This document shows, piece by piece, positions 8,893 through 38,015 of a DNA stretch of 64,000 nt. The stretch's first letter is position 1. Every line of letters begins with the position of its first letter. The notes under the pieces were generated by a model that was given only the letters and a program-made list of their open reading frames with translations, ran no database searches and was not told the origin of the DNA. Origin of the DNA: a virus; IMG/VR virus record IMGVR_UViG_3300031707_002920, positions 21,904 to 85,903 of that record, one strand, 5' to 3'. The position numbers and the translations under genes were made by a program.

Positions 8893-9304
8893 GGGGGTGT
8901 AAGGTTTCGACAGATTGGGTGAAGTAACAGTTGCATGTAGAGGAAATCACTGGTTGGCCTCTTAAATCATCCGGTGAACTTTAACTGCCAACACAGGTGC
9001 AGTTCTGGGTGCAAAATTCGCAACACAGTTTGCTGTTCTTTGCGGATTGACCTCCCAGGTCAGCGTTGCTTAATTTAAAAGCAACAGAGTTTTAGTGAGA
9101 GCCACGGTAGCTAAAACTTCAAGTAGTGTGGATAGGACAACCGAATCGCAGTAGAGAAGGGGACCGAAATGACGTCTGCGCCTCTTACTTGTGAAGCTTG
9201 CTGATTCTTAGTAATAAGATAAGAGGAAGTTACAGAATCAGATAAACATGTAGTAACTGTTATAGAGCACATTCTGGACAGGGGTTCAATTCCCCTCACC
9301 TCCA
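8893..9304 (+). ncRNA. ssrA: tmRNA
   Basis: 5' GGGGGTGTAAGGTTTCGAC, 3' GACAGGGGTTCAATTCCCCTCACCTCCA; resume context TTAACT-GCC; tag ANTGAVLGAKFATQFAVLCGLTSQVSVA* at 8987-9073. Confidence 0.92.
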
Positions 9305-18502: not shown

Positions 18503-18550
18503 GTAGAGCAGCTATATCAATCTACGCAAAGCAGGTTGATTATAAAAGTT

Positions 18551-18766
18551 ATGAGAACTACAATTGAAGTAGCTCCTGATAAACGAAGAATTTGGCGACA
18601 ATGGTGTAAGAAATTTAAATTAAGTAGTGTAAAGTTATTTGATAAATTAATTGAGAAGATCGAGCAACGACAACAACAAGAGTTTTATAATTCATTGCCA
18701 AGACCTATAAAATATGTTAAGCCATTGGAAAATAAAAGAATTAGGAAATTTGTATACAAAAAATAG
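18551..18766 (+). CDS. small basic protein, possibly ribbon-helix-helix-like (copy 1)
   Basis: MRTTIEV strand then helices; immediately upstream of attI-like site. Confidence 0.6.
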   Translation: MRTTIEVAPDKRRIWRQWCKKFKLSSVKLFDKLIEKIEQRQQQEFYNSLPRPIKYVKPLENKRIRKFVYKK

Positions 18767-18777
18767 GTTCATATAAT
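18750..18777 (+). promoter_or_regulatory. sigma70-type promoter (Pc-like) overlapping attI-like site
   Basis: TTGTAT-16 bp-TATAAT; predicted +1 near the GTT at 18783; repeated at 19753-19780. Confidence 0.6.
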
Positions 18778-18789
18778 AACTAGTTGCAC
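18771..18789 (+). other. attI-like recombination site 1
   Basis: ATATAAT-AACTA-GTTGCAC; no hairpin precedes this GTT, and GTTGCACG is complementary to CGTGCAAC at 18961 closing cassette 1. Confidence 0.75.
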
Positions 18790-18822
18790 GCAATAGGCCG
18801 CGAACCATGTTGGAGGTGAATT

Positions 18823-19056
18823 TTGGAAACGAGAATTATTCGTAACGCCAGTTGTAAATGTAGCGATTGCATGGGACCGGAGCGGGGTATCTGCCCTCGT
18901 AAGGGTTTCCAAAATTCACGGAGCACTAAGGAGTCGCGGCCTACAGTCCGGCGAAACGCCCGTGCAACAGACAAAGTGCGCCATGTAGATGATGGCCGTG
19001 TCGTTCCAGTAGATGGGTATGGTCAGCACAGCCACCCCGATTTTTTTCACGATTGA
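18823..19056 (+). CDS. cassette ORF, hypothetical Cys-containing
   Basis: GGAGGTG RBS before TTG; ends inside attC loop. Confidence 0.55.
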   Translation: METRIIRNASCKCSDCMGPERGICPRKGFQNSRSTKESRPTVRRNARATDKVRHVDDGRVVPVDGYGQHSHPDFFHD

Positions 19057-19085
19057 TTACGGCGCACGTTTGTCAACCGTTGTTT
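18962..19085 (+). repeat. attC-like site
   Basis: AAC-A-GACAAA-GTGCGCC...GGCGCAC-G-TTTGTC-AACC-GTT. Confidence 0.85.
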
Positions 19086-19122
19086 GCAATTGTCAATTTC
19101 TCTTATATACTGAGGTGGCGCT

Positions 19123-19362
19123 ATGATGACAGAACGGTGCGGAAGGTGTGCGAATCTAAGTGGGTTATGTGCTATGGTCGGCTGTGGTGGCTTCGTCGAG
19201 AAAGCGCCACTGGAAGCTGTGGAAGAAATTGCCAACAGCACACAACAAACCAATGGCGCAGGGGCTGAAGCCACATTACCGCCCAGGTGCCTCATCACTG
19301 GTTGTTACGACGATGCAGAACCTACATCTGTGTTCTGTGCGTGGCATAATATAGGGCGGTAA
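19123..19362 (+). CDS. cassette ORF, Cys-rich hypothetical
   Basis: GAGG RBS; ORF track. Confidence 0.6.
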   Translation: MMTERCGRCANLSGLCAMVGCGGFVEKAPLEAVEEIANSTQQTNGAGAEATLPPRCLITGCYDDAEPTSVFCAWHNIGR

Positions 19363-19387
19363 CGTCGCCATTGGTCAAACGTTGTAA
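19240..19387 (+). repeat. attC-like site
   Basis: AAC-AA-ACCAATGGCG...CGCCATTGGT-CAAAC-GTT. Confidence 0.8.
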
Positions 19388-19477
19388 GAAATGCTGGCCG
19401 TTCTGAAATTATAGGGCGGCGGCAAAACCAAAACAAGGAGAAAACATGAAACGCATTATCGAGAAGTACGACCACCA
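19381..19477 (+). pseudogene. truncated copy of the cassette at 21274 (5' leader and first codons)
   Basis: Identical to 21274-21370, then fused to repeat copy 2. Confidence 0.9.
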
Positions 19478-19789
19478 ATGGTTTATCGACGCTTGTCAAT
19501 TTTAAGTAGAGCAGCTATATCAATCTACGCAAAGCAGGTTGATTATAAAAGTTATGAGAACTACAATTGAAGTAGCTCCTGATAAACGAAGAATTTGGCG
19601 ACAATGGTGTAAGAAATTTAAATTAAGTAGTGTAAAGTTATTTGATAAATTAATTGAGAAGATCGAGCAACGACAACAACAAGAGTTTTATAATTCATTG
19701 CCAAGACCTATAAAATATGTTAAGCCATTGGAAAATAAAAGAATTAGGAAATTTGTATACAAAAAATAGGTTCATATAATAACTAGTTG
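19476..19789 (+). repeat. 314-bp direct repeat copy 2 with attI-like site 2 (GTT at 19786)
   Basis: Identical to 18473-18786; followed by a different cassette (GTTGTCGG). Confidence 0.95.
19554..19769 (+). CDS. small basic protein (copy 2)
   Basis: Identical to 18551-18766. Confidence 0.6.
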   Translation: MRTTIEVAPDKRRIWRQWCKKFKLSSVKLFDKLIEKIEQRQQQEFYNSLPRPIKYVKPLENKRIRKFVYKK

Positions 19790-19828
19790 TCGGAAATTCC
19801 GCGCAGGTTTTATGATTGGAGGCGGCGC

Positions 19829-20059
19829 ATGAGAGATAGTGATTTCAAACGCAAATTGTTCTGGGAGTGCATCGACAATCTGGGATCGAAGGGGCGTAGC
19901 AGCGCCGCTAAACTGGCGGAACCTGCGCTCCACATCCCACAACAGGGCCAGCACAAAATTTGCCCTCAATGTGGTGGCAATCTTGTGGAGATGTATCAGG
20001 CTGATGTTTACATTTGCAATGATTGCGGTATCAAGGTTACGGGCAAACTTCGTGCGTAG
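19829..20059 (+). CDS. cassette ORF, Zn-ribbon hypothetical
   Basis: GGAGG RBS; CPQC..CNDC encoded in the attC loop. Confidence 0.65.
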   Translation: MRDSDFKRKLFWECIDNLGSKGRSSAAKLAEPALHIPQQGQHKICPQCGGNLVEMYQADVYICNDCGIKVTGKLRA

Positions 20060-20074
20060 CCCGAACCGTTGTAT
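19937..20074 (+). repeat. attC-like site
   Basis: AAC-A-GGGCCA-GCAC...GTGC-G-TAGCCC-GAACC-GTT. Confidence 0.8.
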
Positions 20075-20112
20075 GCAACCGGTCACGCGACCATATTGTA
20101 AAGGGGCGACAA

Positions 20113-20436
20113 ATGACAATCATCCAGGCGTTATCAAGCATTCGCGGTGAGTTGGAGGAAGCGGAGCGCAAGTTCCCCTCGTTTCCTACAGACCCGGTAC
20201 ACGCCGCCGCAATAGTGGTTGAGGAAGCTGGTGAGCTACAACAGGCAGCATTGCAGTTTACGTATGAAGGCGGCGGCTGGGCTGAGTTGCACAACGAGGC
20301 TGTGCAGGTTGGCGCGATGGCGCTCCGCTTTCTTTGTCACATAGATTCGATGAAGAGTCGTCCCTCCGAGCAGGTGGAGCGCGTGCCCGGCAGCATACAA
20401 CAGGGCCAGCACGAAACGGCGGCTGACAAGGGGTAG
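20113..20436 (+). CDS. cassette ORF, MazG-like nucleotide pyrophosphohydrolase
   Basis: HAAAIVVEEAGEL...EAVQVGAMALRFL. Confidence 0.7.
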   Translation: MTIIQALSSIRGELEEAERKFPSFPTDPVHAAAIVVEEAGELQQAALQFTYEGGGWAELHNEAVQVGAMALRFLCHIDSMKSRPSEQVERVPGSIQQGQHETAADKG

Positions 20437-20482
20437 GGGATTATAGGCCGCCGCATCGTGCGAGTGGCCCGGGACGTTGTAA
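20395..20482 (+). repeat. attC-like site
   Basis: AAC-A-GGGCCA-GCACGA...TCGTGC-GAG-TGGCCC-GGGAC-GTT. Confidence 0.85.
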
Positions 20483-20548
20483 GAAATTCGCCCCGCTTTG
20501 AGAATATTTAGGCGAGCGCGAAAACCAAAAACAAAAAAGGAGAAACAA

Positions 20549-20884
20549 ATGCAAGCAGGACCGGTATCGATATTTCAGTCCCCGAATATTGTAAGGGACC
20601 TTCGTGTCTTGCCCGAGTTTAAGACCGTTGCACAACAATTTCGAGATGATTTAGGGCACAAAATGGTGGAGCACAAAAAGAAAATCAAAACTGACGGTAA
20701 TAAACTGTGTGGATTTATTGTGTCTCCTGAGTACAAAGCTATGTTACTTACTTTTTGCCAGGACCTTGTTCAGCTACCTACTATTATGGGTGAGTTACCT
20801 ATGCTGTACGGGATGCCCATTGAAGATGGAGAGGTCTCAAATATCGCGTTCAAATTTGAAAAAGACGCGCTCGCAGGACACTAA
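20549..20884 (+). CDS. cassette ORF, hypothetical
   Basis: AAGGAG RBS. Confidence 0.7.
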   Translation: MQAGPVSIFQSPNIVRDLRVLPEFKTVAQQFRDDLGHKMVEHKKKIKTDGNKLCGFIVSPEYKAMLLTFCQDLVQLPTIMGELPMLYGMPIEDGEVSNIAFKFEKDALAGH

Positions 20885-20902
20885 GGAGGCGGGGCGAACA
20901 TC

Positions 20903-20995
20903 TTACAACACAGCAAGGGATGCCAGAAACGCAGGACATTAAGGATTGAATTTTATTATAGGCGTTTCCAGCACCCGTTGCTGAACGCGTTGGTT
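20903..20995 (+). repeat. attC-like site (86 bp identical to 21726-21811)
   Basis: AAC-A-CAGCAA-GGG...CCC-G-TTGCTG-AACGC-GTT. Confidence 0.85.
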
Positions 20996-21035
20996 GAAAT
21001 TCCAGTCGATTTATTTTATTGAAAGGTTGCGAATT

Positions 21036-21248
21036 ATGTTTGTTCCAATTTGGCTGCTTATCGTCTTATCGGGGTTTGGTTGCTGGGGCACACTTATATT
21101 CATCAATGCCATTCGCAACAGGAAATCTAAGGTGGTATCTCCTTCCGCATTCGCACAACAGGCAAAGTGTGCCATGCTTCCGTGTCTCGGCTATTTAGAA
21201 TCTGAGTGTGAAAATTGTAGCAACTACAATCTGTACCGTAAACCGTAG
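21036..21248 (+). CDS. cassette ORF, membrane-anchored Cys-rich hypothetical
   Basis: AAGG RBS; N-terminal TM helix. Confidence 0.6.
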   Translation: MFVPIWLLIVLSGFGCWGTLIFINAIRNRKSKVVSPSAFAQQAKCAMLPCLGYLESECENCSNYNLYRKP

Positions 21249-21280
21249 CGGCACGGCACACATTTGCCGAACCGTTGTAA
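21153..21280 (+). repeat. attC-like site
   Basis: AAC-A-GGCAAA-GTGTGCC...GGCACAC-A-TTTGCC-GAACC-GTT. Confidence 0.85.
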
Positions 21281-21338
21281 GAAATGCTGGCCGTTCTGAA
21301 ATTATAGGGCGGCGGCAAAACCAAAACAAGGAGAAAAC

Positions 21339-21689
21339 ATGAAACGCATTATCGAGAAGTACGACCACCAGTTTATCAAAGATGGTAAGCGCATTTTCTG
21401 TACCTATGTTACTGTGCCATTTTCAGAGTTGCCTGAAGACTGTGATTTTTCTGGATTGGATGTGTCTATTATCAACGTGCTGTATGATGACTGTCACATC
21501 GCTGTTACGGGGTTTGATAGCAATCAAAACGGTATCTCAGTAGAGATACCCCCTACGCTGAAATTTCTATTTTATAAGGCAAGGGAGCAAGGTCAAGCGG
21601 TGTGTGCTGAATTGCTGACGAAGCATAACTTTGAAACAAACTGCATCAAGTTCAAAAAGGATATAGGGTACAGTAACACGGTAGCATAA
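21339..21689 (+). CDS. cassette ORF, hypothetical
   Basis: AAGGAG RBS. Confidence 0.75.
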   Translation: MKRIIEKYDHQFIKDGKRIFCTYVTVPFSELPEDCDFSGLDVSIINVLYDDCHIAVTGFDSNQNGISVEIPPTLKFLFYKAREQGQAVCAELLTKHNFETNCIKFKKDIGYSNTVA

Positions 21690-21730
21690 GAGAGCCGCCG
21701 CCAAGACATTAGGGATACGGCCAGCACATC

Positions 21731-21821
21731 TTACAACACAGCAAGGGATGCCAGAAACGCAGGACATTAAGGATTGAATTTTATTATAGGCGTTTCCAGC
21801 ACCCGTTGCTGGGCGTTGGTG
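21731..21821 (+). repeat. attC-like site
   Basis: Same body as 20903-20995. Confidence 0.85.
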
Positions 21822-21847
21822 GAAATAAACTTTTCTTTGGAGGTTAT

Positions 21848-22114
21848 ATGTTTGCCGAATTTGACAAGGTGATTAGGTGCCTTGCGTTGGAGTTACCCGA
21901 GTCCGTACATGCCGATGTTGTGGCGAAGTACGGCAAACTGAAAGCTGAGGTGGAAAAGTTTACATCCACCAACAGCGCTATGGATGCAATAAACGCTTAC
22001 ATTAAGGAATATGATAGCAAGCTGATTACTACTCCCGATGAAAAATGTGCATTGGCGGTGTGTGAATTTACGGATAAGTATGCTAATATTTTTAGGCGTT
22101 TACTGCACCAGTAG
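21848..22114 (+). CDS. cassette ORF, hypothetical
   Basis: GGAGG RBS; C-terminal half encoded by attC. Confidence 0.7.
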   Translation: MFAEFDKVIRCLALELPESVHADVVAKYGKLKAEVEKFTSTNSAMDAINAYIKEYDSKLITTPDEKCALAVCEFTDKYANIFRRLLHQ

Positions 22115-22128
22115 CGCAGACGTTGGGT
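21967..22128 (+). repeat. attC-like site
   Basis: AAC-A-GCGCTA-TGG...CCA-G-TAGCGC-AGAC-GTT. Confidence 0.85.
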
Positions 22129-22165
22129 GCAATTCGCGCCCGACCATATGATAGGCGGTTTCGCT

Positions 22166-22453
22166 ATGAAGATATGTCGAAAGTGTAGTATCGTTTACGA
22201 GAATCGTACTTGCCCGCTGTGTAATCTGCGCAAGCACGATAATCTTGTCCACGACTTCATCGAGTCAAAGGGACGAAGTCTTGTTCGGGAGTTGGTAGCC
22301 TATTTGCAGCACCGCGAAACCGCAGCAGATAGCGGAGCGGGCGCGAACAGCACCCAACATTCGCAGCACAAAAGTTGCCCTACATTCAACCGAGATTGTC
22401 ATTTCTCTGTTGTCAAGATACAGTGTACGAATGCCGGAGATTGTCCATGTTAA
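22166..22453 (+). CDS. cassette ORF, Zn-ribbon hypothetical
   Basis: CRKC..CPLC. Confidence 0.65.
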   Translation: MKICRKCSIVYENRTCPLCNLRKHDNLVHDFIESKGRSLVRELVAYLQHRETAADSGAGANSTQHSQHKSCPTFNRDCHFSVVKIQCTNAGDCPC

Positions 22454-22489
22454 ACGGGCAACCTTCGTGCGGTGCGGTGAACGTTGGTG
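22352..22489 (+). repeat. attC-like site
   Basis: AAC...CGCA-GCAC..GTTGCCC / GGGCAAC..GTGC-G-GTGCG...GTT. Confidence 0.75.
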
Positions 22490-22533
22490 TAAATTTCGGT
22501 CGCTCTAAAACACGAATTATAGGAGGCGCAAAA

Positions 22534-22809
22534 ATGTCAGGAACGATTTATCATACGTGTTCGGTATGTGGAAGCGAAATGTATCCGAAGATTGGAGGGC
22601 GATCAAACGGCGACACCATAACAGAGTTTGTCATGGTGCCGTGTAAGATTTGCGCCTCTGAAAAAGAGGAATCCGCTCCCTCCGCATCCACCAACAGCGC
22701 TATGGTGTCATTGTGCTTAAAATGTAAATATACTTTTTCTTGTATAATGGCTGGTGAACACGTGCGAGAATCTTGTCCTACAAATGAGTTCGCACAACGG
22801 CACCAGTAG
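22534..22809 (+). CDS. cassette ORF, Zn-ribbon hypothetical
   Basis: AGGAGG RBS; CSVC..CKIC. Confidence 0.7.
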   Translation: MSGTIYHTCSVCGSEMYPKIGGRSNGDTITEFVMVPCKICASEKEESAPSASTNSAMVSLCLKCKYTFSCIMAGEHVRESCPTNEFAQRHQ

Positions 22810-22823
22810 CGCGGACGGTGGTG
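22689..22823 (+). repeat. attC-like site with mutated core (GGT)
   Basis: AAC-A-GCGCTA-TGG...CCA-G-TAGCGC-GGAC-GGT. Confidence 0.8.
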
Positions 22824-22850
22824 TAAATAAACCGCGCTTGGAGGTTATAG

Positions 22851-23087
22851 GTGGCCGCCGATGAAGTGCTTCGATTTATGATCCGATGGTTTGCGCGACA
22901 CGATACGCCGCCGACGGTTCGCCAGGTATGGAAAGCGGCCACGAAAGCAGCGGAGGCGCGGTTTACATCCACCAACAAAGCAAGTGCGCCATGCCCACAG
23001 TGTGTAGATTTTGGCGCTATTCCGCCGCTTGTCAACTATTGTAAAACCTGTGGCCGTAAGCTACATGAGCACGGCGCACGTTGCTGA
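22851..23087 (+). CDS. cassette ORF, hypothetical
   Basis: GGAGG RBS before GTG. Confidence 0.6.
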   Translation: MAADEVLRFMIRWFARHDTPPTVRQVWKAATKAAEARFTSTNKASAPCPQCVDFGAIPPLVNYCKTCGRKLHEHGARC

Positions 23088-23097
23088 ACCGTTGTAA
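22970..23097 (+). repeat. attC-like site
   Basis: AAC-A-AAGCAA-GTGCGCC...GGCGCAC-G-TTGCTG-AACC-GTT. Confidence 0.85.
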
Positions 23098-23147
23098 GAA
23101 ATGCTCACCATTTTTGAATTTATGGGTGGGCGCAAAAAGGAGACCTA

Positions 23148-23468
23148 ATGCAGAACGTTTACGATGTTTTAAAATACAGGTTGTCTTTTATCTATGTTGT
23201 GTTAGCCTACACCTATTTGGTGTTAGCCTACATTTTTTGTATCATCATTAGTCCTTTGGGATTATTTTTAATGCTTTTTGAAAAACCTAAAATATGTTGT
23301 GTATGTAATAAGCGTATTGGTAAAAAAGAAGCTTGGACAAGTTATATTCATAGACCTGCTCATTATTCGTGTGTAGAAAACAAATGGTCATACTGGTATC
23401 AATTTGGCCCTATGGATAATCCTGATTATTGGCGTTATTTAGGTAGGAGTGCGCCCACAGAACAATAA
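23148..23468 (+). CDS. cassette ORF, membrane protein with CxxC/HxxC
   Basis: AAGGAG RBS; long hydrophobic N-terminus. Confidence 0.7.
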   Translation: MQNVYDVLKYRLSFIYVVLAYTYLVLAYIFCIIISPLGLFLMLFEKPKICCVCNKRIGKKEAWTSYIHRPAHYSCVENKWSYWYQFGPMDNPDYWRYLGRSAPTEQ

Positions 23469-23486
23469 GGAAATGGTGAGCACATC

Positions 23487-23556
23487 TTACAACAAACAAA
23501 TGGTGCCGAAGACTAAATCGTGAGTACACGACTTCACCATTTGTTGGACGTTGTAC
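23487..23556 (+). repeat. attC-like site (short, 70 bp)
   Basis: AAC-A-AACAAATGGTG...CACCATTTGTT-GGAC-GTT. Confidence 0.85.
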
Positions 23557-23600
23557 GCAAGTTTGGCGGTTCTGAATTTGATAGGCCGCCGAGGAGAAAT

Positions 23601-23974
23601 ATGGCATACCTTCATTGTCACAAGTGCGGCTGGTCACAGGATGATTTTTGGTATTGGCGGTGGTCTGGCCTCAAACAGTTTTGGAGGTGGCGGCATATGC
23701 CATTTGGCTATAATCCCGTTTCTCTTATTCTCGAAGATTTTGCCGAATACTGGAAGCCGCGCATGATAGGAATGGACTGTGTTTGGGCGCGTGAAAATGG
23801 TTTTAAAAGTAGTAATATTTTTCTTGGCATATTATGCTTTGGTCAATGGGTCGTCATGCGCGGCGTGTATTTAGTCAACGGTGGTGGTTTGACGATCAGT
23901 TTAAACGGGATTATAAAAACAATAAGGCCAAATGTCCTTCGTGCAAGTCACCAGATGATTTTGATATAGACTAA
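23601..23974 (+). pseudogene. cassette ORF, Zn-ribbon protein with probable 1-nt frameshift near 23820
   Basis: MAYLHCHKCGWSQDDFW... continues in the shifted frame as FSWHIML...KCPSCKSPDDFDID*. Confidence 0.6.
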
Positions 23975-24011
23975 TCGGCGGCAGAAGAATATTGAAACCG
24001 CCAAACCAGAC

Positions 24012-24094
24012 GTACAACAGCCGCAGCTTGAAACGGCTTTACACTAATGATTATGTTTTTGTAGGCCGCATCAAGCGTGCGGCAAACGTTGTAG
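24012..24094 (+). repeat. attC-like site
   Basis: AAC-A-GCCGCA-GCTTGA...TCAAGC-G-TGCGGC-AAAC-GTT. Confidence 0.88.
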
Positions 24095-24143
24095 TCAATG
24101 CCGTGCCGAGTCTTTATTGTAGGTGCGGCCATAAGGAGCAAGT

Positions 24144-24371
24144 ATGTTTTCATGGATGCATCGTGGTAAAGTTGAACGACCTATGTCCGAATTTCATGCC
24201 GAGTATATGGCCACACAGAGAGCAAAAGAGGAGTCGGCACGTCACAGCCTACAACAGCTAAAGGCTGAAATTGCCGCTACTATGCTTCCAGCTATTGTGG
24301 CATTAAGTAAAGGTGATATGATTACAGTCGCTAAATGTATTGACGAACTGCGGCAACTATCAGCCGTTTAG
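24144..24371 (+). CDS. cassette ORF ending QQLKAEIA...LRQLSAV
   Basis: AAGGAG RBS; stop TAG within attC right arm. Confidence 0.65.
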   Translation: MFSWMHRGKVERPMSEFHAEYMATQRAKEESARHSLQQLKAEIAATMLPAIVALSKGDMITVAKCIDELRQLSAV

Positions 24372-24383
24372 CGAACGTTGGTT
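24249..24383 (+). repeat. attC-like site
   Basis: AAC-A-GCTAAA-GGCTGA...TCAGCC-G-TTTAGC-GAAC-GTT. Confidence 0.88.
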
Positions 24384-24420
24384 GAAATTCCAGTCATGCT
24401 TTTTATGTTTGGAGGCGAAC

Positions 24421-24639
24421 ATGCTGTACTTTATCATAGGATGTCTAATAATCGGGTTGTTTATCTCGTTTTCAATAGGTTGGTGGTGTGGCGAACGGCA
24501 TGTTCGCAGAAACACTATGGTAGGCATTCCTTCCACATCAACCAACAGCAAAAGTACGCCATGTAAATGCACCTCAGTGCCGTTGGTAATATCTGAGAAG
24601 TGTAGATGTCGTATCTGTGGTCGAGTGTGGGTTCAGTAA
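24421..24639 (+). CDS. cassette ORF, membrane-anchored Cys-rich hypothetical
   Basis: GGAGG RBS; TM helix. Confidence 0.65.
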   Translation: MLYFIIGCLIIGLFISFSIGWWCGERHVRRNTMVGIPSTSTNSKSTPCKCTSVPLVISEKCRCRICGRVWVQ

Positions 24640-24667
24640 CACGGCGTACATTTTGCGGACGTTGTAA
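24540..24667 (+). repeat. attC-like site
   Basis: AAC-A-GCAAAA-GTACGCC...GGCGTAC-A-TTTTGC-GGAC-GTT. Confidence 0.85.
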
Positions 24668-24725
24668 GAAATGCGGTTGGCTCTGAAAATTATAAGCCGC
24701 CGCTAAAATCAAAACAAGGTATCAC

Positions 24726-25121
24726 ATGAAATTATCATCCTGCTCTCAAAAATTATATGGTAAACCTTTTTCAGATCTCACAGACTCTGAAAAAATAACA
24801 GTTAGAAAAGAAACTGCAAAATTAACTGTAGAAGAAGAACTCGAAAAACAAACCAAACGCGAACAAGAGTGGCATGACAGAATCGAGGATCCTGGACAAT
24901 GGTTCTGCCCCCGATGCGGTCATAAACTAGAACCGGTAAGCAAGGACAATGAAGACTGGGGAGATTTTTGTAGCGGATACCATGAGGAGCACGGCACTTT
25001 CTGGTTTCTATGCTCTAACAAAGACTGCACTTACAGTGAGGCTCCTCTTGTCGTCCATCATCCTGTTTATGGATGGCAATGCAGATCAGGAGATAGTTGG
25101 GCTATTGGTTACGTCAAATAA
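24726..25121 (+). CDS. cassette ORF, Zn-ribbon hypothetical
   Basis: CPRC..CSNKDC. Confidence 0.75.
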   Translation: MKLSSCSQKLYGKPFSDLTDSEKITVRKETAKLTVEEELEKQTKREQEWHDRIEDPGQWFCPRCGHKLEPVSKDNEDWGDFCSGYHEEHGTFWFLCSNKDCTYSEAPLVVHHPVYGWQCRSGDSWAIGYVK

Positions 25122-25162
25122 AGGCAGCGGCGGCGGGAAAGTAAGGAAGCCAACCGCACATC

Positions 25163-25235
25163 TTACAACAAATGCATGGCGGGGAGTACCCGCAAATTTG
25201 GAGTACCAAACTTCGCCATGCATCGGACGTTGTAG
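25163..25235 (+). repeat. attC-like site (near-identical to 26485-26557)
   Basis: AAC-AA-ATGCATGGCG...CGCCATGCAT-CGGAC-GTT. Confidence 0.85.
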
Positions 25236-25266
25236 TCAATTGTCGAGCGCAAAGAAAGGAAATTAT

Positions 25267-25497
25267 ATGCCCGCCGAAGAATTGCTTCCGTGTCGTAAAT
25301 GTGGGGCTCCTGCTGCGCCGATAGCTCCACCGAAAGATGGCTGGTCGTGTTTAATACACTGTTCAAAGTTTTGCGGTTATCATGAGCATGAAGGAACGGT
25401 AGAGAAAACGGTTCTTGCGTGGAATCGGCGGGCGGACACTAAGGAGTGCGCTCGCCAACAGCCTACAACAACCGTATGCCAAAATGTCGACGAGTAA
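25267..25497 (+). CDS. cassette ORF, Lar-like (restriction alleviation) Zn-ribbon protein
   Basis: ELLPCRKCG..A...IHC..C....A WNRR pattern. Confidence 0.65.
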   Translation: MPAEELLPCRKCGAPAAPIAPPKDGWSCLIHCSKFCGYHEHEGTVEKTVLAWNRRADTKECARQQPTTTVCQNVDE

Positions 25498-25739
25498 CCG
25501 ACGTGACTATGAACGCTCAGATTTTCAGTTCCCTGAGAAAACACGGAAAAGATATGTTGGATGTCTCCTGCTTAGCTAAAGAATTAAAAAAGGGTCTTAT
25601 GGGGACGATGTGGGGTGCTCGCGTGTGGGTTCATAGAGATGCTACAGAAATTAGGTGTTACGGAGAAAATAGTGTTGAGTTTGAAAAGCAATTCCCTTTT
25701 CTCAAGGAGTCTAAAAGAGTTCTCAAAATTAAAGACTAA
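25476..25739 (+). CDS. hypothetical protein (possible capsid-protein-like fragment)
   Basis: ORF track; MNAQ..SLRK.G.D.LD...ELKKGLMGTMWGA. Confidence 0.5.
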   Translation: MPKCRRVTDVTMNAQIFSSLRKHGKDMLDVSCLAKELKKGLMGTMWGARVWVHRDATEIRCYGENSVEFEKQFPFLKESKRVLKIKD

Positions 25740-25770
25740 AAGCCACAAACGAAGAGAGAGGAGGGATGTG

Positions 25771-26160
25771 ATGAGCCGGTCGTACTTTACAACACAGAAA
25801 ATTTCACGTAAGATATTTCCTAATAAAGTGGGAGATAGCATCCTACTTAAAAATGGAGAAAAACTAACTATTGGATCAGATAGAAAGGATATATCTGGAT
25901 CATTCTATCTGACGGATGGGATAGCAAGTGTGTGGTTGTATTTCGATAAGGGCCTTCTCTCTATGTACGATATAAACAATACATTTGCATGGAATGGTAC
26001 TGGAGAGCCATTGCTGAAAAAAATCCGATCATACGTGCGCAAACCAAAAGCAAAAGAGGCACGTCCTGTGCCTAAGAGCCGCCACAAGGACACTATGGTA
26101 GCGCGAAAAATAGCAGCCAACAGCCACAGCCCAAAACAGTGGAAGTTGACTAAGGACTAA
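25771..26160 (+). CDS. cassette ORF, hypothetical
   Basis: GGAGG RBS. Confidence 0.65.
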   Translation: MSRSYFTTQKISRKIFPNKVGDSILLKNGEKLTIGSDRKDISGSFYLTDGIASVWLYFDKGLLSMYDINNTFAWNGTGEPLLKKIRSYVRKPKAKEARPVPKSRHKDTMVARKIAANSHSPKQWKLTKD

Positions 26161-26204
26161 TTTTATTATAGTCCGCTGCATCGGGCGTGCGGCGGACGTT
26201 GTAC
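26115..26204 (+). repeat. attC-like site
   Basis: AAC-A-GCCACA-GCCC...GGGC-G-TGCGGC-GGAC-GTT. Confidence 0.8.
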
Positions 26205-26257
26205 AAAATTTAACCGCGTCTTGGATTTATAGCCGGGGCGCAAAACAGGAGAAAAAC

Positions 26258-26479
26258 ATGAAAGACACAGAGTTGAGAATTATCAGCGACGGTACTGTTG
26301 CTGGCACACAGGTGGTGGATTCTAAAGGTAACAGGGTCAAATTAGTACAGAAAATAAAATGGGAGTTATCCCTATCGTCTGGTATATCTAAAGTTACATT
26401 GGAAATTGCCAAAACACCTATTGATGTCATCGCCAAAAAAGCAAGAGCGCCCCGGAGGAACATTAAGGAACGCGGTTAA
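26258..26479 (+). CDS. cassette ORF, hypothetical
   Basis: AGGAG RBS. Confidence 0.75.
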   Translation: MKDTELRIISDGTVAGTQVVDSKGNRVKLVQKIKWELSLSSGISKVTLEIAKTPIDVIAKKARAPRRNIKERG

Positions 26480-26484
26480 ACTTC

Positions 26485-26557
26485 GTACAACAAATGCATG
26501 GCGGGGAGTACCCCCAAATTTGGAGTACCAAACTTCGCCATGCATCAAACGTTGTGC
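26485..26557 (+). repeat. attC-like site
   Basis: Same body as 25163-25235 with one internal difference. Confidence 0.85.
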
Positions 26558-26589
26558 GAAATAACCGGCGAACCATATTGGAGGCGCGA

Positions 26590-26919
26590 ATGATTCACAA
26601 ACACGATCTGCGTACCGCTATCAGCGATCTCGGGCAGGCTCTGGAGCATGTCGAGCACTATAGTGGTAGGCCGGAAGTTTTTTGCCTTAAGCAGCTTTTG
26701 GTCAATCCACTTTCGTACGCGCAGAACAATGGGAGTCGCCGGTTACATCGCACAACAGCGAAAGTGCGCAATGTCAACACAATTTTCAAGAGTCTATTTG
26801 TATTCGCTGTGGTAAAAAATTGTGATGCCACAGCGCACGTTTCGCGAGACGTTGGTTGCAATGGTCTTCTTAAATTTATTATAGGCGGCGCAAATGGCAA
26901 TTCCATTTTTCAAATGTAG
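26590..26919 (+). CDS. cassette ORF, hypothetical (3' end uncertain, reads across attC)
   Basis: GGAGG RBS before ATG 26590. Confidence 0.45.
   Translation: MIHKHDLRTAISDLGQALEHVEHYSGRPEVFCLKQLLVNPLSYAQNNGSRRLHRTTAKVRNVNTIFKSLFVFAVVKNCDATAHVSRDVGCNGLLKFIIGGANGNSIFQM
26750..26857 (+). repeat. attC-like site
   Basis: AAC-A-GCGAAA-GTGCGC...GCGCAC-G-TTTCGC-GAGAC-GTT. Confidence 0.85.
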
Positions 26920-27130
26920 TAAACATGGTGTTGTGAAGTTCAGGGTTATTCACGAGTGCGAGGTATGCGCCGCTGAAAACCGCTGTACTCAGCCCACAGA
27001 CAACCAACATACGCAGCTTGCAATTGCAGCTCTTCGCGGCGCGTTGTCTCGGTTGCCCGTCAATCTTGGCATGGTAGATCAGATATTGGTTGCCTTCGAG
27101 GAAGAGCTGCAACAGCAAGCGAGTGCGTAA
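26894..27130 (+). CDS. cassette ORF; C-terminus shared with 63336-63701
   Basis: QHTQLAIAALRGALSRLP...EELQQQASA. Confidence 0.65.
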   Translation: MAIPFFKCSKHGVVKFRVIHECEVCAAENRCTQPTDNQHTQLAIAALRGALSRLPVNLGMVDQILVAFEEELQQQASA

Positions 27131-27140
27131 AACGTTGGCC
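27002..27140 (+). repeat. attC-like site
   Basis: AAC-A-TACGCA-GCTTGC...GCAAGC-GAG-TGCGTA-AAAC-GTT. Confidence 0.85.
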
Positions 27141-27260
27141 GAAACTCCACGGCCAAAACGAATATAGATAGGCGGCATTATGCGGCCAAAGCGCCGCACT
27201 GCGCATAATCGCGGGCGTTGTACGCAATGGGCTTCTTAAATTTATTGGAGGTGGTTGCTT

Positions 27261-27497
27261 ATGTCAAAATGCAATAGTTGCGGTCGTGAGCCTCTTGAAT
27301 ATGTAACAAGGTGTGTGCGTTGCGGAGCGGCGCAACCACTGGAAAGCAGCGGTACTCAGCCCACAGACGTACAACAGCTAAAGGCCGAAATCGCCATGTG
27401 TGCGGCGTTGCTTGAGCCTTTATTCGGGGCGACTGAGGAACAAAGTAAGGTCATTACCGATGTCACGCAAAGACTGTGGCGACTATCAGCCGTTTAG
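27261..27497 (+). CDS. cassette ORF, Zn-ribbon, ends QQLKAEIA...LWRLSAV
   Basis: GGAGG RBS. Confidence 0.65.
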   Translation: MSKCNSCGREPLEYVTRCVRCGAAQPLESSGTQPTDVQQLKAEIAMCAALLEPLFGATEEQSKVITDVTQRLWRLSAV

Positions 27498-27509
27498 CAA
27501 ACGTTGTAT
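27369..27509 (+). repeat. attC-like site
   Basis: AAC-A-GCTAAA-GGCCGA...TCAGCC-G-TTTAGC-AAAC-GTT. Confidence 0.85.
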
Positions 27510-27541
27510 GCCATTTACATTTTCTCGGAGGTTATAGGCAC

Positions 27542-27763
27542 ATGGCTATATGCGGTACGAATCAATGCGTAGAGTGCGAGCTGTATATACACTGCATACG
27601 ACATGTGCGCGACGTAGTTCCGCCATGTGCAAAAAATGTAAACCAGCTAAAAGCCGAAATTCGCGCATTGCTAAACGACAATTGTGAGTTTTACGAAAGT
27701 AACGCTTCGTTAAGTAACATTAGCGCGTTTTTGTTCAAATTGCGCGAACTATCGGCTGTTTAG
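27542..27763 (+). CDS. cassette ORF, Cys-rich, ends QLKAEI...LRELSAV
   Basis: GGAGG RBS. Confidence 0.65.
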   Translation: MAICGTNQCVECELYIHCIRHVRDVVPPCAKNVNQLKAEIRALLNDNCEFYESNASLSNISAFLFKLRELSAV

Positions 27764-27776
27764 CAAATCGTTGTGC
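27637..27776 (+). repeat. attC-like site with eroded inverse core
   Basis: GCTAAA-AGCCGA...TCGGCT-G-TTTAGC-AAATC-GTT. Confidence 0.75.
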
Positions 27777-27812
27777 GCCATTAGAACCAGTCTTTATATC
27801 GAGAGGTAAAAC

Positions 27813-28046
27813 ATGTTTGCTTTGCAGTTAGTAGCACTCGTGCTGATTCTGTCTGCCGCTGCCCTCATAGTTACGATGCTTTTATTGGGTGTCGTAAGTT
27901 CGTTTTCGTCAAGTAAATGGTTCTGTACATCAATGGGTTGGCATCGTCAGCCAGACTCCATAGGCTTTGATGGCTGCTCGATGCTTGGTTGCTGTCCTCG
28001 GTGCGGCAAACATGTTTTACTGGATAGTCAAGGTAACTGGTTCTAA
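27813..28046 (+). CDS. cassette ORF, membrane-anchored Zn-ribbon
   Basis: GAGG RBS; WFC..MGWH...FDGCS...CPRCGK..L.DSQGNWF. Confidence 0.75.
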   Translation: MFALQLVALVLILSAAALIVTMLLLGVVSSFSSSKWFCTSMGWHRQPDSIGFDGCSMLGCCPRCGKHVLLDSQGNWF

Positions 28047-28077
28047 CAGCGCACAACAAATAGACAAGGAGATTTAT

Positions 28078-28386
28078 ATGGCGCGCAAGATTGTAAAGTT
28101 CGATGTTCAGCAGGTGCCGAATGATTATTGGAGTCAGTGTCACTACATATCGTGGTGTCTGTGCGACGACGGTACTATGTGGGAATTGCAAGATAATGAA
28201 AGCGCGTGGCGTCAGTTGCCTGTACCGGGGTGCGCGCCGGACACTGTGGAAGGCGCAAATTTACATCCACCAAGTGTGCCAGTTTGCCCTTCATGGTGTA
28301 AGGATACGTCAAGTGGTACGTGGGGGTGTTTGAAGGGCAAACCAGCACACATTTTGAAAGGTGGCGATCATGTCAACAGACATTAA
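28078..28386 (+). CDS. cassette-derived ORF, hypothetical
   Basis: AAGGAG RBS; degenerate inverse core TTACATCCACCAAG at 28261. Confidence 0.6.
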   Translation: MARKIVKFDVQQVPNDYWSQCHYISWCLCDDGTMWELQDNESAWRQLPVPGCAPDTVEGANLHPPSVPVCPSWCKDTSSGTWGCLKGKPAHILKGGDHVNRH

Positions 28387-28723
28387 CGTAGGTTTGGGAG
28401 AGTTTAAACTATTAGAGAGATTTGTGGTAGCTATGGAGCGAATCGCCACCAAACTGGAGGAAATCGCTCCTTCCACACCAACTAACAAAAGTGTGCCATT
28501 ATCTAAAACTAGTTATAAATTTCCAGAAACTGGAGTCTTTTTGGATATCCCTGTCAAAGCTCATTGGGTTCATAAAAATGTTAGTGAGATGAAAGAGGTC
28601 CGTATTTTTGGTAACATTTTAAAACTGGCTGAAACTTATGACATAATGATAACGCGGTCAGATTCTGAAAAATTGGTAATTTATATCGATGAGCCAGGAA
28701 AAAAATTCCGAATAAGAGGTTAA
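28370..28723 (+). CDS. cassette-derived ORF, hypothetical
   Basis: Contains attC-type peptide APSTPTNK. Confidence 0.55.
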   Translation: MSTDINVGLGEFKLLERFVVAMERIATKLEEIAPSTPTNKSVPLSKTSYKFPETGVFLDIPVKAHWVHKNVSEMKEVRIFGNILKLAETYDIMITRSDSEKLVIYIDEPGKKFRIRG

Positions 28724-28813
28724 AAGGATATTTTATGATCTGGATAGAGGTAAACAATTTGGAATTATTGTCAATGTGGAAACAATGTGTACTTTTTAGA
28801 ATTGGAGGGTGCA

Positions 28814-29089
28814 ATGAAAGTTTTGCCGTTGTGTGATACGTCTGGACACGATATGGAGATTGTTGCTGAAACAGACTTTGAGGCGGAGTGGCTTAAATGT
28901 CATTTCAAGGTTTGGCGCGGTGTAGATGGATTTGTTGATGATACAACAGTAGGTGGTGTTCGCCTCAAAGTCAAGAGCGCATGGTGGGATTGCACTAGAG
29001 CACTGGCGGAAGCGCACACACAGCCTACAACAGCGCCATGCGGTACGGGGCAGAAGCCCCAAATTGCCGAAGCGTCAACTTCCGCATAG
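28814..29089 (+). CDS. last cassette ORF, hypothetical
   Basis: GGAGG RBS; GCCTACAAC inverse core at 29023, right core degenerate (AAACTTGG). Confidence 0.65.
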   Translation: MKVLPLCDTSGHDMEIVAETDFEAEWLKCHFKVWRGVDGFVDDTTVGGVRLKVKSAWWDCTRALAEAHTQPTTAPCGTGQKPQIAEASTSA

Positions 29090-29372
29090 CGCAAACTTGG
29101 AAGAAAAATGAAACTTACATCGTTTGCGTAACTCAGGCCGGTTCGTGATGCAGCGATGCGTGTCGTTGAGGCTCAAACAGCGCCTCAATGCCGCTATTGT
29201 TTAAGCTTCATTGATGATTCTCATAAATTTATAGTTTTAAACTGTATATAGTAGCTAAAAATGTGTACAATATAAACTAATATCCCACTCAGGTATGTCG
29301 TATTTAAATACTCTGTTTGTGGTAGTTTTTAATGTAATCACATGAATATGAAAAACAAAACAGAAGAAGAAA

Positions 29373-30632
29373 ATGAAACTCGTACACAAATTTAACTATA
29401 GAAAGAAAAACATTGAGCTGGATACTTTGTGTAGAGTGTCTAATGATATCTATAATCAAGCGAATTATACCATAAAACAGGAGCTAAATAAATCTGGTAA
29501 ATGGATACGATATAACGAGCTAGACCAAATAATGAAAGTCACAGAGAATCTAGAGCACGAGATAAATTATAGGAAACTAAAAGCACAGGCGGCTCAGCAA
29601 ACATTAAGGATGCTGGATAAAAACTGGAACTCTTATTTCAGAGCACTCAAACCGTTTAAAAAGGATCCCAATAAATTTACCGGTCAACCGAGACCTCCTA
29701 GATTTCTAAAACGTGGGAGCATAAATTTACTAGTTTATACTAATCAATGCTCCCAAATAAAGGATAATAAAATAGTATTAGAAGAAAACATATCCATAGG
29801 AATACCCGAGGTAGATAAAGATTTTAGTAAATTTAATCAGATAAGAATTTTGCCGAGAAAAAATAGATATGAGATAGAGATAGTCTATAGCGTAGATTGT
29901 GCCAATTTAGAACTAGATCAGAACAATTATTTATCAATAGATTTGGGAGTCAACAATTTAGCGGCTTGTATTTCTAAAGATAAATCTTTTCTTTTAGACG
30001 GCAAACCTATTAAGTCTATAAATCAGTTTTTTAACAAAACTCTTGCAAAGAATAGATCTTTCAGAGACAAAAAAGGAGGCGGAGCATGCCGTAGAAAATC
30101 AAACGAACTAAGTAATTACAGAGAGTTTTTTATCAGGGATCAGTTTCATAAAATGACGAGGCTTCTTGTAAATTATTGCATAGTGAAAAACATTGGTACT
30201 ATAGTTTGTGGGTATAATAAGCGATGGAAAGACTCCATCGATATTGGTAAAGTTTCGAATCAGAAGTTTACCAACATACCTCATAAACTATTTTTGAAGA
30301 TGTTAAAATACAAATGTAATTTAGTAGGCATTGTGTTGATTTGTAAAGAGGAGTCATACACATCTAAGTGCGATGGACTAGCATTAGAGCCCGTAAAAAA
30401 GCACAAAGTTTACTTGGGCAAGAGGATTAAGAGAGGGCTTTTTCAGAGCTCTGTTGGAAAGCTTATCAATGCTGATATTGGTGGGTCTTTAAATACACTT
30501 AGAAAAGTAATCGGTGATGGTTCCTTTATCAGGGATCTAATCGATAGTGTGGTTCTGTTTAACCCAGTGAAGATAAGGTTTGCGGATTTAAGCTGCAAGC
30601 AGACTCTTTCAAATTTTTTGGTTAGATGTTAA
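29373..30632 (+). CDS. tnpB: TnpB (IS200/IS605, IS1341-type, no tnpA)
   Basis: YNQANY, SIDLGVNNL, EESYTSK, RIKRGLF, INADIGGSLN. Confidence 0.9.
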   Translation: MKLVHKFNYRKKNIELDTLCRVSNDIYNQANYTIKQELNKSGKWIRYNELDQIMKVTENLEHEINYRKLKAQAAQQTLRMLDKNWNSYFRALKPFKKDPNKFTGQPRPPRFLKRGSINLLVYTNQCSQIKDNKIVLEENISIGIPEVDKDFSKFNQIRILPRKNRYEIEIVYSVDCANLELDQNNYLSIDLGVNNLAACISKDKSFLLDGKPIKSINQFFNKTLAKNRSFRDKKGGGACRRKSNELSNYREFFIRDQFHKMTRLLVNYCIVKNIGTIVCGYNKRWKDSIDIGKVSNQKFTNIPHKLFLKMLKYKCNLVGIVLICKEESYTSKCDGLALEPVKKHKVYLGKRIKRGLFQSSVGKLINADIGGSLNTLRKVIGDGSFIRDLIDSVVLFNPVKIRFADLSCKQTLSNFLVRC

Positions 30633-33948: not shown

Positions 33949-34344
33949 ATGCCAAGATGGGACAAGTCAAACAAGGCGACCTATAATTTGGGATACCACT
34001 TAATCTGGTGCCCCAAGTACCGACGCAAAGTCTTGGTTGGAGATGTAGAGAAAAGACTCAAAGAGCTGTTCCATGAAAAGGCAAAGGAGCTTTCTATTTC
34101 TATTGAGAAAATGGAAGTCATGCCCGATCATGTTCATCTTTTCGTTAAATGCTCTCCAGTCAATTCTCCTCATCTGATCGTAAAGCACCTCAAGGGATAC
34201 AGTTCGAGAGTGATGAGGATAGAGTTCCCAAAATTGAAATCAAGACTCCCGTCACTGTGGACCCGATCCTACTACTGTGAATCGATAGGTCACATTTCAG
34301 AAGAGACAATCAAAAAGTACATCGACGACCAAAAGAACAAATGA
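33949..34344 (+). CDS. tnpA: Y1 HUH transposase
   Basis: YHLIWCPKYRR, PDHVH, LWTRSYY, YIDDQ. Confidence 0.95.
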   Translation: MPRWDKSNKATYNLGYHLIWCPKYRRKVLVGDVEKRLKELFHEKAKELSISIEKMEVMPDHVHLFVKCSPVNSPHLIVKHLKGYSSRVMRIEFPKLKSRLPSLWTRSYYCESIGHISEETIKKYIDDQKNK

Positions 34345-37824: not shown

Positions 37825-38015
37825 AATTTCGTTTTTTAAAAGATGTCACAGTTTATAGTTGCATAATAATATAGATTTTAGTAAGTTATCATCATTTTTG
37901 AATAATTAAATTATGAACATGCGATGAGCCACAATTCACAAGGTTTTAACTCTCGATGGTTATGCTCACTAAAAATAATTGTTGACAATAAACTGGAGTG
38001 TTATACATTAAGATT

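Follow-up and report, generated by a model that had tools for sequence, protein, structure and literature searches.

The attC recombination sites of integron cassettes fold more stably on their bottom strands, and extrahelical bases opposite the arm with the cleaved AAC set the choice of strand (PMC5027507). Two preprints (bioRxiv 10.1101/2024.07.02.601686, 10.1101/2024.07.02.601719) report that bacterial integrons stockpile anti-phage defence cassettes. Clusters of attC sites lacking integron integrases (CALINs) have also been described in phages, where they were found with IntegronFinder, comprise as few as two attC sites and are recombined by IntI1 (Qi et al. 2023, PMC9892861), and promoter early stem-loop (PeSL) elements of T4-type phages combine a promoter and a terminator in a conserved sequence and are believed to be exchanged through homology (PMC2839356, PMC4122927). 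Here we describe an array of about 25 units, occupying about 10 kb (18783-29096) of a 64,000-nucleotide stretch of phage DNA. This stretch, referred to below as the window, corresponds to bases 21904-85903 of the 85.9-kb IMG/VR virus record IMGVR_UViG_3300031707_002920. In our reading, to which we give a probability of roughly 75%, this is an orphan array of mobile cassettes that belongs to a phage-borne, integron-like, site-specific recombination system with a likely Xer-like recombinase acting in trans. A first-pass annotation of this DNA had noted that integrons are normally described on bacterial chromosomes and plasmids, a view that the published attC clusters in phages (PMC9892861) have made outdated; our full-text literature searches turned up no account of phage arrays that use a recombinase other than IntI.

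Structure of the array and its sites

The array contains 28 short open reading frames (ORFs) with sequences resembling ribosome-binding sites (RBS), all on the + strand between 18823 and 29089, and its GC content of 0.41-0.50 (19-29 kb) compares with about 0.33 in the flanks. Units open with GTTG, and 22 units or compound units close with a CAAC box and a hairpin that ends at the next GTTG. Towards the GTT, such a site reads CAAC, one nucleotide, a 6-bp stem continuing into a longer stem, and a variable tip of 20-120 nt, where the C-terminal codons of the ORF are often located. On the way back, the stem has a single bulged base, in most cases a G, and is separated from GTTG by 4-5 unpaired nucleotides. 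The spacers are asymmetric (1 nt versus 4-5 nt) in a design that is constant in layout and variable in sequence, and the CAAC and GTTG boxes are near-invariant across the 22 sites. Irregularities consist of a GGT in place of the opening box at 22817, two compound units (25229-26197 and 27770-29095) and a CTT at 29096.

Alignment of the 22 sites revealed 88-89% pairing in the stem, compared with 68% in shuffles (0/500) and 22-46% with the partners slid, and compensatory changes on both sides were found in five of the six inner-stem pairs. These imperfect palindromes, with paired outer and inner boxes, are conserved in structure rather than in sequence, as attC sites are. A simple site detector found 12 sites in the array and none elsewhere on either strand of the 85.9-kb record; it returned five singletons in 1.06 Mb of unrelated viral loci, a background set consisting of loci with chance single matches to a 15-nt cassette-start pattern, which itself gave chance single matches only in viral contigs. 

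The two ends of a unit also complement each other. When the six nucleotides before the AAC were set against the reverse-complemented six that follow the opening GTT of the same unit, 5.0 of 6 positions agreed, compared with 3.1 of 6 for the adjacent next unit and 3.05 of 6 for other units (permutation, 0/100000). This pairing extends past the 9-nt box over about 45 nt, with two more unit-specific stems around a conserved internal loop, and the extended score was 12.9 for own ends versus 6.5 otherwise (0/20000). The descriptive claims of the first-pass annotation, namely about 28 short co-oriented ORFs, most with an RBS, more than 20 imperfect hairpins from AAC to GTT, opening bases complementary in most units to the unit's own closing bases and an array richer in GC than the backbone, are all borne out by these results.

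When folded as single-stranded DNA (ssDNA), the - strand was more stable than the + strand at nine of nine sites. Given a crossover at the + strand GTT, cleavage falls at an AAC of the - strand, which would be the strand recombined. The 5' arm of that strand holds the cleaved AAC together with the bulged base and the 3-4 additional spacer nucleotides. Many cassette ORFs continue across the CAAC box (21965-22121, 22689-22816, 24249-24376 and 27368-27502), and recombination sites so read encode conserved peptide motifs such as STNSAM and QQLKAEI along with the C-terminal part of the protein; here a single stretch of DNA has to serve as coding sequence and as recombination site at once.

A conserved leader (GTTGnnnnnAAT, then a TATAGG-like motif and an RBS) is found in every unit. 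Only a few of these leaders pass a sigma-70 consensus scan, and the scan gives no support for a canonical promoter in each cassette. A variable region flanked by core replication genes, in which every small ORF comes after a hairpin and a promoter-like motif, is what would be expected of the PeSL-type cassettes of T4-type phages, in which modules of a terminator stem-loop and an early promoter are shuffled by homology, and modular shuffling of this kind has been reported (PMC2839356, PMC4122927). However, the hairpins here are not terminator-like: the scan listed 13 terminator-like sites against an expectation of 10.9, and no cassette hairpin was among them. Furthermore, the stems are diverse with compensatory changes, the common boxes of 4 nt are too short for homologous exchange, and that model gives no part to the pairing between the two ends of the same unit. 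Together with the exact breakpoints at GTT and the recurrence of the same units in unrelated backbones of 25-61% GC described below, this makes the PeSL explanation very improbable.

Spread and mobility of the cassettes

Three hairpin sequences served as probes for related arrays. The same kind of array was found in at least 25 other viral records (8-467 kb), mostly unrelated, one of which is 213 kb long, has terminal repeats and is rated 100% complete, and the same hairpins or cassettes were present in 38 metagenome contigs. The DNA flanking these arrays ranges from about 25% to 61% GC, and six records that we compared have nearly no common backbone genes except for one related pair (G003 and G004). 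Two of the hairpin probes had no match in 185,579 species genomes, a test that covers these two hairpin types.

Complete units are found again in other phages and in metagenomes, with different neighbours, in agreement with the first-pass proposal of shufflable cassettes, and their breakpoints fall at GTT. Unit 26198-26550 is 95.5% identical in L145 and L150 from two nucleotides before its GTT to three after the next, and unit 19786-20067 is 99% identical in metagenome contig L178, with homology running from GTT to the next GTTG. Overall, two contigs become homologous 1-4 nt ahead of a GTT and cease to be so 3-4 nt beyond the following one, or 10-12 nt past it where the following units have common first bases; a minority of homologous stretches end at the AAC box of the unit. 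Because these two units recur with their ends at GTT, the unit is an ORF with its downstream hairpin, as in integron cassettes. The frame of unit 26198-26550 (GTTGTACAAAAT ... CTTCGTACAAC plus a hairpin of type D8) holds an unrelated ORF in phage G002 (L139:10990-11320), and since the same frame has unrelated ORFs in the window and in G002, cassette frame and cargo appear, on comparison of these sequences, to evolve separately.

One sediment run contains 92% of the array and 16 others contain 6-14% of it; in the three of those 16 that were examined, individual cassettes were present and there was no cover on the phage backbone flanks. Logan unitigs and loose ends stop at GTT and AAC boxes. An assembly chimera of phage and foreign DNA, or another artefact, would account for the jumps in GC at both borders, for the break of Logan unitigs at every cassette junction and for an exact 300-bp repeat with a truncated cassette fusion that no listed contig bridges. 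Against this, the depth of unique array pieces in the source run (X1) is 38-50 compared with 41 for the backbone, similar arrays are embedded in other phage records, including the complete one of 213 kb, and the array begins at a conserved attI core that other phages also have. We regard such an artefact as extremely unlikely.

Hairpins of type D8 also adjoin DNA of 56-61% GC encoding, among others, an M42 peptidase in metagenome contigs L153 and L152; the L153 hairpin is followed by GATG in place of GTTG, and an array may come to its end there, whether the carrier is a phage of high GC content or a bacterium.

Array start and candidate recombinase

The array starts at GTT 18783, which has no hairpin before it, lies 5 nt after a perfect TATAAT (18772-18777) and reads ...TATAATAACTA directly followed by GTTG, with TATAATAACTAGTTG as the attI core. 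The first-pass annotation had placed a promoter over a hairpin-less GTT here; the GTT and the -10 box stand, and the -35 is weak and the promoter was not listed by the sigma-70 scan. The 20 nt at 18767-18786, repeated at 19770-19789, are identical to a junction in viral contig L221 directly downstream of a gene for a tyrosine recombinase of 263 amino acids. Near-identical cores start the arrays in L200, L204 and L122, and a looser version is found in G013 and L222; the core counts as conserved at the array starts of four phages besides L221. Because of the 20-nt identity to the recombinase-adjoining site in L221, we judge the hairpin-less GTT, as far as sequence can tell, to be a true attI-type site; like an integron, the array would have an attI at its head with a promoter-like -10 box reading into the cassettes. 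In L221, the cassette next to attI is homologous to the Lar-like one at 25229 of the window, where a hairpin precedes it, and the two sequences diverge exactly at the GTT. The same cassette after attI and after attC is the classic comparison for placing the crossover in integrons.

The gene for the G013 recombinase (268 amino acids) has the same orientation as the array that follows it and stops 7 nt short of the first GTTG. Matches to PF00589 were found in 3 of 21 further array records, each about 0.7-2.5 kb from the hairpins. The G013 enzyme scored 130 bits against XerA (cut-off 220), 125.5 against the integron integrase model TIGR02249 (cut-off 265) and lower against XerC and XerD; its best solved relative is an XerC-like (XerA-type) protein (PDB 4a8e, E 6e-29). 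Alignment with VchIntIA fell into two pieces with 37 residues where IntI4 has 87, and we take the missing residues, about 50, to be the IntI-specific insertion. While a search with the single protein found only itself, an alignment-based profile search of viral contigs added two members, L221 (54%) and L222 (49%), each with a co-oriented array directly 3'. The G013 enzyme heads a clade of about 33 proteins (43-100% identity, 266-305 amino acids) in which the catalytic residues R, HxxR, H and Y are conserved and to which other recombinases are at most 34% identical; about 30 of the homologues are on short contigs. By way of comparison, the detector returned only five isolated matches in 802 kb when run on 76 control loci with other tyrosine recombinases. 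The recombinases of G026 and G028 were rejected as candidates, being of other types and not of the array enzyme family; the G028 enzyme we read as an ordinary phage integrase, and the sequence after its gene looks like a tRNA gene.

The array-bearing phages turned out to have no tyrosine, serine or Y1 recombinase in common. Searches of the other array-bearing phages for serine recombinases (PF00239) and Y1 enzymes (PF01797) were negative, and 67 large flanking ORFs of the metagenome contigs gave no integrase among the Pfam matches listed (25 families).

A canonical integron fragment, that is, a CALIN produced by a host IntI that put ordinary cassettes into phage DNA, perhaps at a secondary GTT site, would share the AAC and GTT boxes, the folding imperfect palindrome, the crossover at GTT and the lack of an integrase in cis; recombination of phage CALINs by IntI1 is published (PMC9892861), and IntI can insert cassettes outside att sites (bioRxiv 10.1101/2022.09.11.507474). 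The enzyme at the identical attI is, however, not IntI (125.5 versus 265 bits, and about 50 residues shorter than VchIntIA in the insertion region), two hairpin types are unmatched in the species genomes yet occur in many phage and metagenome contigs, and the cassettes have their own leaders and long end clamps. We consider this origin unlikely. The first-pass annotation drew its parallel from integron cassettes, which IntI inserts at attI; the enzyme linked to the arrays is a small Xer-like recombinase below the IntI cut-off.

Cassette cargo

Cassettes of the sister arrays encode Tad3 (L175, 114-790), an Acb2/Tad1-hairpin-domain protein (L166, G003) and N6/N4 and C5 DNA methylases (L162, L178, G006, G013), and some of these arrays adjoin genes for nicotinate phosphoribosyltransferase and NAD synthase. 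In L175, a nine-cassette array (72-8335) starts with Tad3, an inhibitor of Thoeris; nicotinate phosphoribosyltransferase, a radical SAM enzyme and NAD synthase are encoded after it, and the region looks like a counter-defence island. The window cassettes encode several zinc ribbons, one protein of a PHROG family of unknown function and otherwise ORFans, and ORF 25267-25497 matches Lar (PF14354) over the whole profile with an E value of 3.3e-5. Tad3, the Acb2/Tad1-like protein, orphan methylases and the Lar-like protein belong to kinds of counter-defence gene that are already known. Overall, the cargo is probably accessory, with anti-defence genes prominent, a role that the window cassettes would share.

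Proposed mechanism

We propose that a cassette consists of a 5' leader (promoter-like motif and RBS), a small ORF and a folding recombination site, and that it would be excised as a circle by recombination between two GTT boxes. Within the circle, the end box would pair with the cassette's own first bases, and the circle, passing through a single-stranded intermediate, would be re-inserted at attI, from where the -10 box may read into the array. The catalyst is most likely the small Xer-like tyrosine recombinase (266-305 amino acids) that a few phages and proviruses encode upstream of the same attI. Because no recombinase was found here or in six of seven near-complete array-bearing phages, we infer action in trans: the enzyme would be supplied by a co-resident prophage or a co-infecting phage, or might instead be encoded in the unsequenced 57% of this genome. 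The first-pass idea of a phage-resident, integron-like platform therefore survives for the mobile cassettes bounded at GTT and fails for a canonical integron, there being no IntI and the asymmetry of the sites being inverse. A broader proposal, for which we see evenly balanced odds, is that sediment phages of very different lineages and GC contents share one pool of self-expressed, largely anti-defence cassettes by way of a phage-specific integron analogue, a minority of them encoding the enzyme and serving orphan arrays in trans; counter-defence genes would then be shuffled at the level of the community.

Several results weigh against the main reading of a phage-borne, integron-like system. 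The 85.9-kb record yielded no recombinase, whatever the class (with no match to TIGR02249 or PF00589), no tyrosine recombinase was found in six of seven array carriers with a completeness of 92% or more, and the link to the enzyme draws on three loci (G013, L221 and L222) and one identical attI core. Hairpins are also exchanged against ORF bodies with a joint at the AAC box, and crossover at GTT alone would not produce this. No circle junction was observed directly; metagenome contig L162 (1918 bp, four cassettes including one with an N6/N4 DNA methylase) has identical first and last 118 bp and may be an assembled multi-cassette circle or a repeated-cassette artefact. As to cargo, most window cassette proteins have no detectable function and the Lar match, at 24.5 bits, is below the Pfam cut-off of 28.6.

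If the main reading is correct, phages have their own integron-type machinery to acquire, stockpile and reshuffle small accessory genes, mirroring the bacterial integrons that stockpile anti-phage defence cassettes. Such machinery would account mechanistically for hypervariable regions rich in ORFans in large phage genomes, and it would offer a route to new anti-defence genes, since anything found in a cassette frame would be a candidate, and a new pair of recombinase and site working on folded DNA.

Order of the cassettes

All units described here are on the + strand. The array is approached through the first copy of a 300-bp direct repeat (18473-18772, 100% identical to 19476-19775), which comprises the 3' end of the helicase gene, a 76-amino-acid ORF (18536-18766) with no family match and unrelated to the recombinase, and the approach to attI. 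The first attI-like site (18767-18786, GTTCATATAATAACTA followed by GTTG) includes the TATAAT, the palindrome AACTAGTT and the crossover GTT at 18783. Cassette 1 (18783-19078) carries ORF 18823-19056, a CGTGCAAC box at 18961-18968 and a hairpin to GTT 19079, and is defined by an 8-nt match of its own ends and by its fold; in runs X1 and X3 it is preceded by a hairpin and not by attI, joined at 18783. Cassette 2 (19079-19380; ORF 19123-19362, AAC box ending at 19246) is followed by a truncated copy of the cassette at 21274 (19381-19475; 19377-19477 is 99% identical to 21270-21370, with identity starting at the GTT), fused at 19476 to the second repeat copy (19476-19775). No listed Logan contig bridges this fusion and the repeat lacks independent read support.

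After the second attI-like site (19770-19789, GTT at 19786) comes a zinc-ribbon cassette (19786-20067; ORF 19829-20059, AAC box ending at 19943). The next (20068-20475) carries ORF 20113-20436, which matches PHROG families of unknown function (best E 4.6e-18), with a GCATACAAC box at 20393-20401 and a 9-nt own-end match. The cassette at 20476-20988 (ORF 20549-20884, TCTTACAAC box 20901-20909, hairpin type D4) has homologues of 61-98% identity only on contigs of at most 1.9 kb, and a unitig of run X5 covers 20499-20908 without phage backbone. It is followed by a cassette with a membrane-like ORF (20989-21273; ORF 21036-21248, AAC box ending at 21159) and by one with 95% identity to L149 (21274-21814; ORF 21339-21689, TCTTACAAC box 21729-21737, hairpin type D4). 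The cassette at 21815-22121, whose ORF (21848-22114) reads through the TCCACCAAC box at 21965-21973 into the hairpin, is present in all four sediment runs, with loose ends at 21813/21814 and several upstream contexts, one run having a number of different sequences before 21814. That at 22122-22482 (ORF 22166-22453, GCACCCAAC box 22350-22358) is 97% identical to L175 from three nucleotides before the GTT and is covered by unitigs 22119-22359 (X2) and 22121-22359 (X5).

The middle of the array continues with cassettes at 22483-22816 (ORF 22534-22809, AAC box ending at 22695), 22817-23090 (ORF 22851-23087, degenerate opening box GGT, AAC box ending at 22976) and 23091-23549 (ORF 23148-23468, TCTTACAAC box 23485-23493), the 57-nt hairpin of the last having ssDNA fold z-scores of -4.0 (+ strand) and -5.8 (- strand). 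Cassette 23550-24087 (ORF 23601-23969, CGTACAAC box 24011-24018) precedes that at 24088-24376, in which the C-terminus of ORF 24144-24371 is encoded by a hairpin of type CAACAGCTAAAGGCTGAAAT..., with 22 matching stretches in about 19 other viral records. Next are 24377-24660 (ORF 24421-24639, TCAACCAAC box 24538-24546) and 24661-25228 (ORF 24726-25121, TCTTACAAC box 25161-25169, hairpin type D8), a hairpin type present in 4 other viral contigs and 38 metagenome contigs. The compound unit 25229-26197 contains the Lar-like ORF 25267-25497 with a CTACAAC box (25463-25469) without a hairpin, then ORFs 25509-25739 and 25771-26160 and a hairpin to GTT 26198.

The distal part comprises cassettes at 26198-26550 (ORF 26258-26479, GTACAAC box 26485-26491, hairpin type D8), 26551-26850 (ORF 26590-26919 running past the next GTT, TCGCACAAC box 26748-26756) and 26851-27133 (ORF 26894-27130, CAACCAAC box 27001-27008), an 83-nt unit without an ORF between two GTT boxes (27134-27216), and cassettes at 27217-27502 (ORF 27261-27497, CGTACAAC box 27368-27375) and 27503-27769 (ORF 27542-27763, degenerate closing box). 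The terminal compound unit (27770-29095) holds ORF 27813-28046 with a GCGCACAAC box (28049-28057) without a hairpin, ORFs 28078-28386, 28370-28723 and 28814-29089, and a last box (29024-29031) with a hairpin, followed by the CTT at 29096.

Phage backbone and flanking elements

The source record has a CheckV completeness of 43%. All large window genes are on the + strand, and the backbone includes genes for primase, helicase, exonuclease, ThyX and a split family-B polymerase. The DNA helicase (16883-18502, + strand; phrog_2488, E 1.9e-117), which forms the left flank of the array, is 82% and 68% identical to those of the two closest contigs, L001 and L002 (the latter from a 416-kb record), both syntenic with the window; its closest cultured relatives are jumbo phages, at 28-35% identity. 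The interval between helicase and exonuclease is 2.8 kb in L001 and 1.5 kb in L002 and contains only ordinary AT-rich genes. The array was not found in these relatives, where site-pattern counts over the whole records (63 and 416 kb) were at background level, and by this comparison the array is an insertion. The position between core replication genes given in the first-pass annotation agrees with these intervals.

Directly 3' of the array, and outside the cassette system, is a TnpB-like gene (29373-30632, + strand; PF01385, E 1.3e-15, and PF07282), whose homologue in G002, an unrelated phage of 170 kb, is 53% identical and lies far from the array of that phage. It is one of two solo TnpB genes, the other being at 45298-46437, and both have OrfB_IS605 and Cas12f1-like TNB domains. 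A complete IS200/IS605-type insertion sequence (IS) lies between the genes for ThyX and DNA polymerase (33949-35366); its Y1 transposase gene (33949-34344; 131 amino acids, PF01797, E 9e-41) overlaps a TnpB gene, and its end hairpins are GCCCACGACTTCAGTCGTGGGA (about 33855) and CCCCACGACTTTAGTCGTGGGA (about 35388).

An IS200/IS605-type Y1 (HUH) transposase could in principle move hairpin-bounded units, as with palindrome-associated transposable elements, and besides this transposase there are three TnpB genes in the window, one of them directly 3' of the array, and a Y1 gene adjoining an array in G001. The IS end hairpins (CCCACGACTTyAGTCGTGGG, 33855 and 35388) are, however, unlike the cassette sites, G002-G006 have no Y1 gene, and the variable stems of the sites fit recognition based on structure rather than on specific sequence. 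We find this explanation exceedingly improbable.

The family-B DNA polymerase is split over ORFs 35551-37824 and 37998-41528, both matching phrog_405, the first its N-terminal and the second its C-terminal part. Twelve tRNA genes lie within 156-9304, including a Pro/Gln/Arg block at 4130-5192, and a transfer-messenger RNA (tmRNA) of 412 nt with a 28-residue tag is at 8893-9304.

Comparison with known systems

With the IS200/IS605 elements and with the repetitive extragenic palindromes and their associated tyrosine transposases (REP/RAYT), the locus shares a mobility based on DNA hairpins and a Y1 transposase in the window. The IS hairpins are sequence-specific, unlike the cassette sites, and most array-bearing phages lack the enzyme. 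The likeness to PeSL cassettes is in the small accessory ORFs of a hyperplastic region between core genes, in the stem-loop with a promoter-like element and in the shuffling between phages; here, in contrast, the stems covary without T-runs and exchange takes place at a fixed GTT.

Tyrosine recombinases can act on folded ssDNA, as in the case of the CTX phage and XerCD. The closest solved relative of the candidate enzyme, 4a8e, is XerC-like (XerA-type), which recalls Xer/dif systems, but there is no dif-like site, and many cassettes are stockpiled at one attI in place of dimer resolution or the integration of a single element.

The closest parallels are with integrons, in the one-way array of small cassettes, the folding imperfect palindromes closed by AAC and GTT, the crossover at GTT and the hairpin-less attI with an outward promoter-like motif. 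The cassette boundary likewise lies at G/TT with a closing box that complements the cassette's own first bases, and the strand complementary to the ORFs folds more stably (9/9 sites), as do attC bottom strands. The differences concern the enzyme, which is Xer-like, lacks the IntI insertion and is encoded upstream of and co-oriented with the array, whereas an integron integrase gene is divergent, and no match to TIGR02249 or PF00589, and thus no IntI-type integrase, is present in the 85.9 kb. They also concern the unpaired bases, which lie on the arm of the cut AAC and not, as in canonical attC sites, on the opposite arm. The cassettes' own leaders, the unit-specific end pairing of about 45 nt and the phage carriers are also distinct. 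Integron cassettes are mostly promoterless under a common promoter (Pc); of the conserved leaders seen in the units here, few pass the sigma-70 scan.

Phage CALINs resemble the locus in having recombination sites without a nearby integrase, in virulent-type phages and with DNA methylase cargo, and by structure the record, with 22 sites and no integrase in 85.9 kb, has this feature. Compared to those clusters, the array described here has about 25 units and its own attI, and it belongs to a family with a non-IntI recombinase.

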